From contig JAUIHQ010000002.1 of NCBI GenBank assembly GCA_030432155.1, positions 1 through 51,250 on the forward strand: a DNA stretch of 51,250 nucleotides. The letters are read 5' to 3'. Shown here piece by piece: positions 41,214 to 41,267 of the stretch. How positions within the stretch are numbered: position 1 is the first letter of the stretch; each line of letters opens with the position of its first letter. A program made the position numbers and the translations under genes. The notes below the pieces were generated by a model that was given only the letters and a program-made list of their open reading frames with translations, was not told the DNA's origin and ran no database searches. Source of the stretch: a bacterium (GTDB taxonomy: Bacteria; Verrucomicrobiota; Kiritimatiellia; CAIVKH01).

Positions 41214-41267
41214 TCCCGCATCCCGCATCCCGCATCCCGCATCCCGCATCCCGCATCCCGCATCCCG
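41214..41267 (-). repeat. Perfect heptanucleotide tandem repeat (TCCCGCA)x7 plus a partial unit; (GGGATGC)n on the minus strand.
   Basis: Units start at 41214, 41221, 41228, 41235, 41242, 41249 and 41256, plus TCCCG at 41263-41267. Eight CCC tracts lie 7 bp apart, 7 nt from the GH13 stop codon (41275-41277). Confidence 0.95.

Follow-up and report, generated by a model that had tools for sequence, protein, structure and literature searches.

A perfect GGGATGC array after a GH13 stop codon in a Kiritimatiellia bacterium is probably a solo member of a lineage-wide class of intergenic heptamer repeats

Introduction

Tandem arrays of heptanucleotides have been a recurrent and unexplained element of bacterial genomes since 1990, the year in which Mazel et al. 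reportedly described the short tandemly repeated repetitive (STRR) heptanucleotides of heterocystous cyanobacteria. Dispersed repeats of another build, the enterobacterial REP elements, are palindromic hairpins that lie after stop codons and are served by a dedicated transposase (RAYT). The protein-coding intervening sequences (IVS) of 23S rRNA in Coxiella and Leptospira carry an S23p open reading frame between inverted ends. PF05635 is the family of this S23p, the 23S-rRNA intervening-sequence protein, an Avd-like four-helix bundle.

G-rich heptamers have been described as GGGAATC repeats in Xanthomonas and as GGGGA(C/T)T repeats in Nostoc PCC 7120; they are intergenic, rare between divergent genes and located within 50 bp after stop codons on the coding strand, and they form G-quadruplexes (G4s) in circular dichroism (CD), with a reported preference for four units and a function that was left open (Rehm et al., 2015; PMC4692102). 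Intergenic direct repeats of another heptamer, TAACTGA, occur in Beggiatoaceae, Cyanobacteria and Bacteroidetes (MacGregor, 2015; PMC4679880).

Our study concerns a heptamer array in a window of 51,250 nucleotides (the whole stretch of DNA that was analysed), which belongs to a metagenome-assembled genome (MAG; G000) of 3.89 Mb in 466 contigs with 60% GC. Like the repeats of Rehm et al., the focal array is a tandem heptamer with a G3+ tract and many dispersed intergenic copies that are depleted in divergent gaps, is predicted to be G4-capable, and lies within 50 bp after a stop codon with its G-rich strand in sense. GGGGATT, the Nostoc unit, likewise occurs in G000 (C300:6366-6409 and C430:4567-4621, the C300 copy being fused to an AGGTTTC array). 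The focal array differs in its unit, GGGATGC, and G000 differs in showing no preference for four units, in having G-rich units as a minority among many interconverting heptamer families, and in that its arrays are tied to PF05635 cassettes, which were not described for the earlier repeats (PMC4692102). With the TAACTGA repeats the focal class shares the patchy occurrence of one heptamer in distant lineages and the location of arrays near ORF ends; the TAACTGA arrays, however, have 2-6 copies and lie mostly just upstream of start codons, whereas those of G000 are enriched after stops.

Results

The focal array consists of 7.9 perfect copies of the minus-strand unit GGGATGC (plus strand: ATCCCGC; 41213-41267; Table 1). 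A regular-expression scan of the minus strand finds eight G3 tracts between 41215 and 41266, at a spacing of exactly 7 nt with 4-nt loops, which matches the canonical G4 motif of four G3+ tracts with N1-7 loops. Seven nucleotides separate the array from the TAG stop codon (41277-41275) of a gene of the GH13 alpha-amylase family, so placed that its G-rich strand is the sense strand of the GH13 3' untranslated region (UTR), and the array lies 68 nt downstream of the stop codon of a VWA-like gene, in the 130-bp gap between these convergent genes. Both the perfect array with eight G3/C3 tracts at 7-bp spacing and its start 7 nt after the GH13 stop in a 130-bp convergent gap had been described in the initial annotation; TRF, the sequence and the regular-expression scan confirm the former, and the ORF coordinates the latter. 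The VWA-like gene is the last of a plus-strand row, TPR-exbB-exbD-exbD-VWA, which ends at 41144, and read-through RNA from this row would carry the C-rich strand, predicted to be unstructured with a fold of -2.5 kcal/mol.

Table 1. Positions of the genes, arrays and predicted hairpins discussed in the text. Positions without a contig name refer to the window; G000 is the genome analysed, G001-G037 are its relatives, and C followed by a number is a contig.
Feature	Position	Strand	Description
VWA-like gene	40113..41144	+	weak VWA_4 match, below cut-off
Weak hairpin between VWA stop and array	41153..41182		z = -1.1 and -0.2, not significant
Focal heptamer array	41213..41267	-	TRF: period 7, 7.9 copies, 100% matches, score 110
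Strong hairpin	41268..41335	both	predicted fold -33.1 kcal/mol (plus), -29.9 (minus); z = -4.4, -4.2; 0/200 shuffles
GH13 alpha-amylase-family gene	41275..44742	-	1155 aa; Pfam Alpha-amylase 1.5e-47; Big_5 + TSP3 repeats
Array of another heptamer family	26805..26843	+	TRF: (CGTTGAA/GAACGTT)x5.6
Degenerate array of the focal heptamer family	29485..29556	-	TRF: 10.3 units, 75% matches
PF05635 cassette	C91:6134		arms AGAGGTC/CTCTGAC
PF05635 cassette	C91:9424		arms GGTTCTT/CCAAGAA
PF05635 cassette	C152:6289		arms GGTTTCG/GAAACCC
45-nt hairpin element	G000 C284:916-960		
45-nt hairpin element	G000 C372:1929-1971		
45-nt hairpin element	G000 C193:7225-7269		
45-nt hairpin element	G001 L083:1461-1505		

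A search of the genome with the flanks of the array by BLAST returned the window itself as the sole match for both flanks, which rules out that the array is part of a MITE or of a hidden mobile element. A phase-variation contingency repeat was also rejected, the array being downstream of both convergent stops and not in a promoter, a 5' UTR or 5' coding sequence. A scan of 28500-42500 with the Rfam 15 covariance models gave no match at E<=1. A 70-aa minus-strand ORF (41183-41395) passes through the array; none of the six frames of the unit contains a stop codon, so that GGGATGC arrays can be traversed by ORF callers, and three such arrays were called 'coding' by our ORF caller for this reason.

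The absence of a canonical hairpin and U-tract terminator from the gap, as first annotated, stands: a consensus scan of 40800-41700 detected neither a promoter-like site nor a hairpin followed by a T-run. The array had also been presented as the only conspicuous element of the gap, and this holds in part: the array is real, but it is not the sole structured element at the junction, because the strong hairpin of Table 1 starts 1 nt after it and comprises the GH13 stop together with the 13 codons before it. This hairpin has no adjoining U-tract, and an intrinsic (Rho-independent) terminator was rejected on both counts; the hairpin is a possible candidate for a non-canonical terminator or pause element of the plus-strand exbBD-VWA operon, judging from its predicted fold. 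Extending this idea to the array itself, (AUCCCGC)n might act as a predicted rut-like site that loads Rho onto the exbB-exbD-VWA transcript, the hairpin serving as pause site. The C:G ratio of 4:1 and the weak fold of the C-rich strand would suit such a role, as would the strong hairpin next to it, the presence of a rho gene in the genome and the lack of an intrinsic terminator in the gap; the 55-nt array is, however, below the typical length of a rut region, about half of the stop-proximal arrays in the genome offer the G-rich strand instead, and most heptamer families are not C-rich, which makes this a very unlikely explanation.

The focal array is an ordinary member of a genome-wide repeat class, a point absent from the initial annotation. 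TRF returned 305 period-7 rows for the whole assembly. At a score of at least 50 there were 74 period-7 arrays, 61 of them intergenic, whereas periods 6 and 8 gave 2 and 8 arrays, respectively (periods 14 and 21 were inflated too), and at a score of at least 40 the real genome had 118 period-7 arrays and a shuffled genome had 1, the array counts being lower bounds since the MAG is fragmented and has ten arrays no more than 150 nt from a contig end. This contrast, together with 9 observed matches for 14-mers of the focal repeat where 1.35 were expected, excludes a chance origin. It is hardly credible that the focal array is an assembly artefact or that its copy number was collapsed in the MAG: the ten arrays near contig ends indicate that longer arrays do break the assembly, but this one measures just 55 bp, sits between unique flanks inside a 51-kb contig, and has equivalents in many independent genomes, long contigs included.

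The 118 arrays fall into many unit families, of which AAACCTG (25 arrays), AACGTTC (13), ATCCCGC (13) and AAGGATG (7) were counted separately from the remaining ones; the 13 TRF arrays of the ATCCCGC family show that the focal heptamer, which was looked for elsewhere in the genome, does recur there. A G3 or C3 tract is present in 28 of the 118 arrays and absent from the other 90. In mosaic arrays (C169, C300, C238 and C60) the units interconvert via single substitutions, in the series GGGATGC, GGGATAC, GGGATTC, GGGTTTC and AGGTTTC. Twenty loci have at least four G3 tracts at 7-nt spacing, and 13 loci have at least five, compared with at most 2 at spacings of 5, 6, 8, 9 or 10. The number of loci declines monotonically with the number of tracts (7, 6, 3, 2, 1 and 1 loci with 4, 5, 6, 7, 8 and 9 tracts, respectively), with no preference for four units. 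The focal array ranks only fifth among the perfect arrays of the genome by length, since the four longest all belong to units without a G3 tract.

Arrays of this class gather directly behind stop codons. When each array was placed uniformly at random within its own gap, 12.4 of the 74 arrays were expected within 10 nt after a stop and 28 were observed (P<5e-5), and the same null gave no excess at start codons; the genome-wide statistics come from a self-trained ORF caller that is crude (88.6% coding, start codons unreliable) and correct around the focal region. The position directly after a stop codon is therefore a rule of the whole class and not a peculiarity of the focal array. Intergenic arrays are found in convergent, tandem and divergent gaps in numbers of 23, 54 and 9, where gap length predicts 17.8, 48.9 and 19.3, divergent gaps thus being depleted (9 vs about 19). 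A universal strand rule was rejected, since of the arrays that begin no more than 30 nt behind a stop 21 have a G-rich sense strand and 18 a C-rich one. Individual families can be more polar with respect to the nearest ORF (AACGTTC 10:2, ATCCCGC 7:1, ACCTCTG 5:0), the largest family, AAACCTG, being 10:10. In the orientation AAACCTGA, the unit of the AAACCTG(A) family carries a TGA (for example at C123:8835, C220:2917 and C426:3094), and several upstream ORFs end on a TGA within the array (distance of 0 or less), so that the array itself provides the stop codon.

The minus strand of the focal array, G3-N4 repeated eight times, satisfies the quadruplex rule as first claimed: in addition to the regular-expression match, it scores 1.29 in G4Hunter and is predicted by ViennaRNA, run with G-quadruplex energies, to contain two G4s (-16.7 kcal/mol, compared with -15.2 kcal/mol without them). 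The initial annotation went on to infer a functional G4, which the comparisons do not support, given that non-G4 units occupy the same position, strand use is mixed and GH13 orthologues have no array. As a discriminator G4Hunter was rejected, because the window, itself at 60% GC, has about 95 further 25-nt regions that reach an absolute score of about 1.2. One or two functional RNA G4s in the GH13 3' UTR could in principle shield the transcript from 3' exonucleases, assist in termination or impede the ribosome as it terminates. The motif and its predicted folds would fit such a model, as would the sense orientation of the G-rich strand 7 nt after the stop, the U-rich stretch AUUAUCUU behind the last G-tract, and a positional bias like the one reported for Xanthomonas and Nostoc, whose repeats adopt G4s in CD (PMC4692102). 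Behind stops, moreover, about 7 of 9 arrays of the G3-bearing sub-family place the G-rich strand in sense, a bias that Rehm et al. also reported and that could reflect selection for a role at the RNA level. This 7:2 bias is not significant, however, and overall strand use is 21:18; the predicted gain amounts to just 1.5 kcal/mol and the G4Hunter score is commonplace in the window; there is no preference for four units; and orthologous GH13 genes have no array at their stops. The stop-proximal position is moreover common to units incapable of forming a G4, among them AGGTTTC, GAACGTT and AGGTCTC. Since such families share position, perfection and abundance with the G-rich ones, G4 formation cannot create or maintain the class, and we regard a functional RNA G4 as an improbable reason for the focal array. 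Local G4 formation is possible as a side effect, as the folding models suggest. If the focal array is a solo member of the heptamer class, its G4 capacity is incidental: it is a consequence of the unit that happens to be repeated here, and the array does not exist on its account.

Two further heptamer arrays lie in the window (Table 1). The degenerate array of the focal family begins 2 nt past the stop of a minus-strand ORF (29559-29909), at a convergent junction like the focal one. The GAACGTT-family array lies 35 nt past the stop of a plus-strand gene (25663-26769) and has a T-run (TTTTT) behind it. The unit of this family contains the palindrome AACGTT, and its stop-proximal arrays, in all cases listed, have one orientation relative to the upstream gene; the stretch 26805-26850 may be a terminator-like element. 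A dispersed repeat of about 110 nt (29301-29411) is present in at least 15 copies at 90-95% identity (C451, C284, C462, C177, C264 and others) and contains the inverted pair ACTCGTACAC / GTGTACGAGT; G000 contains 28 copies of the GTGTACGAGT motif, which is found in G037 as well (L015). This repeat looks like a MITE or a REP-like hairpin element.

The focal unit extends to other genomes. Of 40 relatives, 4 (another family of the class among them) have three consecutive units, (CCCGCAT)3 with at most one mismatch, and none has the reversed control; in a sample of 401 genomes from across the phylum, the exact 21-mer of the unit was present in 10, other classes included. The TCAGGTT unit is present in 13 of 41 genomes. 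Periods 7, 14 and 21 dominate likewise in G003 (180-kb sample) and G011 (200-kb sample), and G003 has several decayed GGGATGC arrays that a strict pattern search missed. Here as in the STRR sequences, several families of tandem, intergenic heptamers coexist and are shared among related genera, with the difference that phylum and units are cyanobacterial in the one case and those of Verrucomicrobiota in the other. The recurrence of an identical heptamer across classes argues for sequence-specific selection or spread and against pure neutral slippage. Only 3 of 2.9 million viral contigs have at least four units of the focal heptamer, and there is thus no sign of a phage vector.

At the focal locus itself, the array is not conserved between genera: GH13 orthologues of other genera (L001-L003, G002 and G014; 51-60% identity) have no array after their stop codon, array turnover being shown between genera only. 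The exact VWA protein gave no record elsewhere, and when metagenomes were scanned with the C-terminus of GH13, none of the relatives returned exceeded 50% identity.

The heptamer class, the focal unit family included, is physically tied to S23p cassettes. Of 16 PF05635 matches in G000, 12 exceed the curated cut-off. A period-7 array lies within 150 nt on at least one side of 9 of these 12 genes, compared with 6.2% of other genes (Fisher 3e-9), and on both sides of 7 of the 12, compared with 11 of 3130 others (Fisher 4e-14). In six of the seven doubly flanked cases the arms consist of an identical or near-identical unit in inverted orientation; the exception, on C59, has both arms on the same strand. 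Each cassette of G000 has its own unit (Table 1). A cluster of cassettes at C91:6000-9900 contains three PF05635 genes, one of them cut at the contig end; two have their own inverted arms (AGAGGTC and GGTTCTT), with extra arrays between. PF05635 matches are found in relatives as well (8 in G001, 8 in G003, 9 in G011 and 4 in G037).

The focal unit family takes part in such a cassette on contig C32 of G001 (L083). A glycosyltransferase gene ends there at 875, a left arm of (GGGATAC/GGGATGC)x16 runs from 874, over that stop, and precedes a confirmed PF05635 gene (994-1419; 1.2e-25), behind which come a 45-nt hairpin element and a right arm, (CCCGTAT/CCCGTAA/CCCGCAT)x24.6, which extends to 1686, the next gene starting at 1688. 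The arms, of 121 nt, are 83% complementary. The CCCGTAA variant, found at the end of both ATCCCGC-family arrays of the window, is common in this right arm. The 45-nt element, a GC-rich hairpin (CCCCGGCACCAGAGAC...GGTGCGGGGC), occurs beside GGGATGC-family arrays (copies in Table 1). On C60 of G000 the GGGATGC family forms an inverted pair without a gene, which begins at a stop codon. These cassettes resemble the 23S rRNA IVS in the inverted arms around a gene for a PF05635 four-helix bundle (in G001 and at six loci of G000); they differ in lying between protein genes and not in rRNA, and in that their arms are heptamer arrays.

Most arrays have no such partner. Among 169 arrays in G000, about 31 are paired with an inverted array no more than 900 nt away; four of the pairs enclose a PF05635 gene and the other pairs none, and about 80% of the arrays are solo. 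All three arrays of the window belong to the latter, the focal one having no inverted partner. The focal locus also has no PF05635 gene, 45-nt element or other cassette remnant, in contrast to a cassette with its PF05635 gene between two inverted arrays, and compared with the 23S rRNA IVS it is a single arm without a gene. It is thus at most a solo arm of the S23p cassette class.

By analogy with known regulators, the array might instead be a candidate cis-acting binding site for a protein or an RNA-binding regulator (an S23p pentamer, an OB-fold protein or a CsrA-like protein) in a post-transcriptional network. The recurrence of identical heptamers in distant genomes, the strong association with PF05635 and the enrichment of arrays after stop codons would be consistent with this, and a comparable hypothesis has been put forward for the TAACTGA repeats of Beggiatoaceae (PMC4679880). 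A single regulator is difficult to match, however, with dozens of units per genome and a separate unit for each cassette, and mixed orientation and quick turnover of the arrays also speak against it, so that we consider a binding array distinctly improbable.

Discussion

The element described here is of a kind already known, that of heptameric simple sequence repeats, STRR and the G-rich repeats of Rehm et al. Taking the evidence together, the focal array probably belongs, as a solo copy without a gene, to a class of intergenic heptamers that spans the lineage; it would have been seeded after a stop codon and expanded by slippage, and would have no function specific to its locus. Its unit would come from the GGGATGC/GGGATAC/GGGTTAC family, one of many in a shared pool, and a copy would have been seeded just behind the GH13 stop, in the kind of untranslated DNA where every family gathers. 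Expansion or homogenisation to 7.9 perfect units would then have been recent and most likely due to slipped-strand mispairing, and the GH13 transcript would presumably include the array in its 3' UTR, with the G-rich strand in sense. A conserved, locus-specific function is probably absent. That the array is prone to slippage, as first annotated, is plausible. It need not descend from a cassette; it could equally be an independent array that arose de novo with a favoured unit.

It is also conceivable, if doubtful, that the heptamer arrays are cis-elements of widespread, self-propagating S23p/Avd-like cassettes and that a sequence-specific process seeds or copies naked arrays directly behind stop codons, in which case the GH13 array would be a fresh footprint and not the product of random slippage. 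If this were true, the inverted arms of every cassette would consist of its cognate heptamer, and the explanation would extend to STRR and Rehm-type repeats. Within the literature searched, we found no paper that links S23p proteins, or Verrucomicrobia/Kiritimatiellia, with heptameric repeats. The REP elements offer a further comparison: they too are dispersed repeats just after stops that may affect the stability of mRNA or the termination of translation, but they are palindromic and have RAYT, whereas the focal array is a direct tandem repeat without a hairpin of its own.

If the focal array is a solo member of the heptamer class, the single locus matters little: it is an ordinary, non-conserved repeat of a 3' spacer, and its annotation as a G4 regulator on sequence alone would be unwarranted. 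The genome as a whole has more to offer, as it adds a lineage of the PVC group to the bacteria with heptanucleotide arrays and provides a clean statistical signal for the placement of arrays directly after stop codons, as well as support for a physical link of such arrays to PF05635 genes. Should the link between arrays and PF05635 prove causal, the origin of a very common class of repeats would become experimentally testable.
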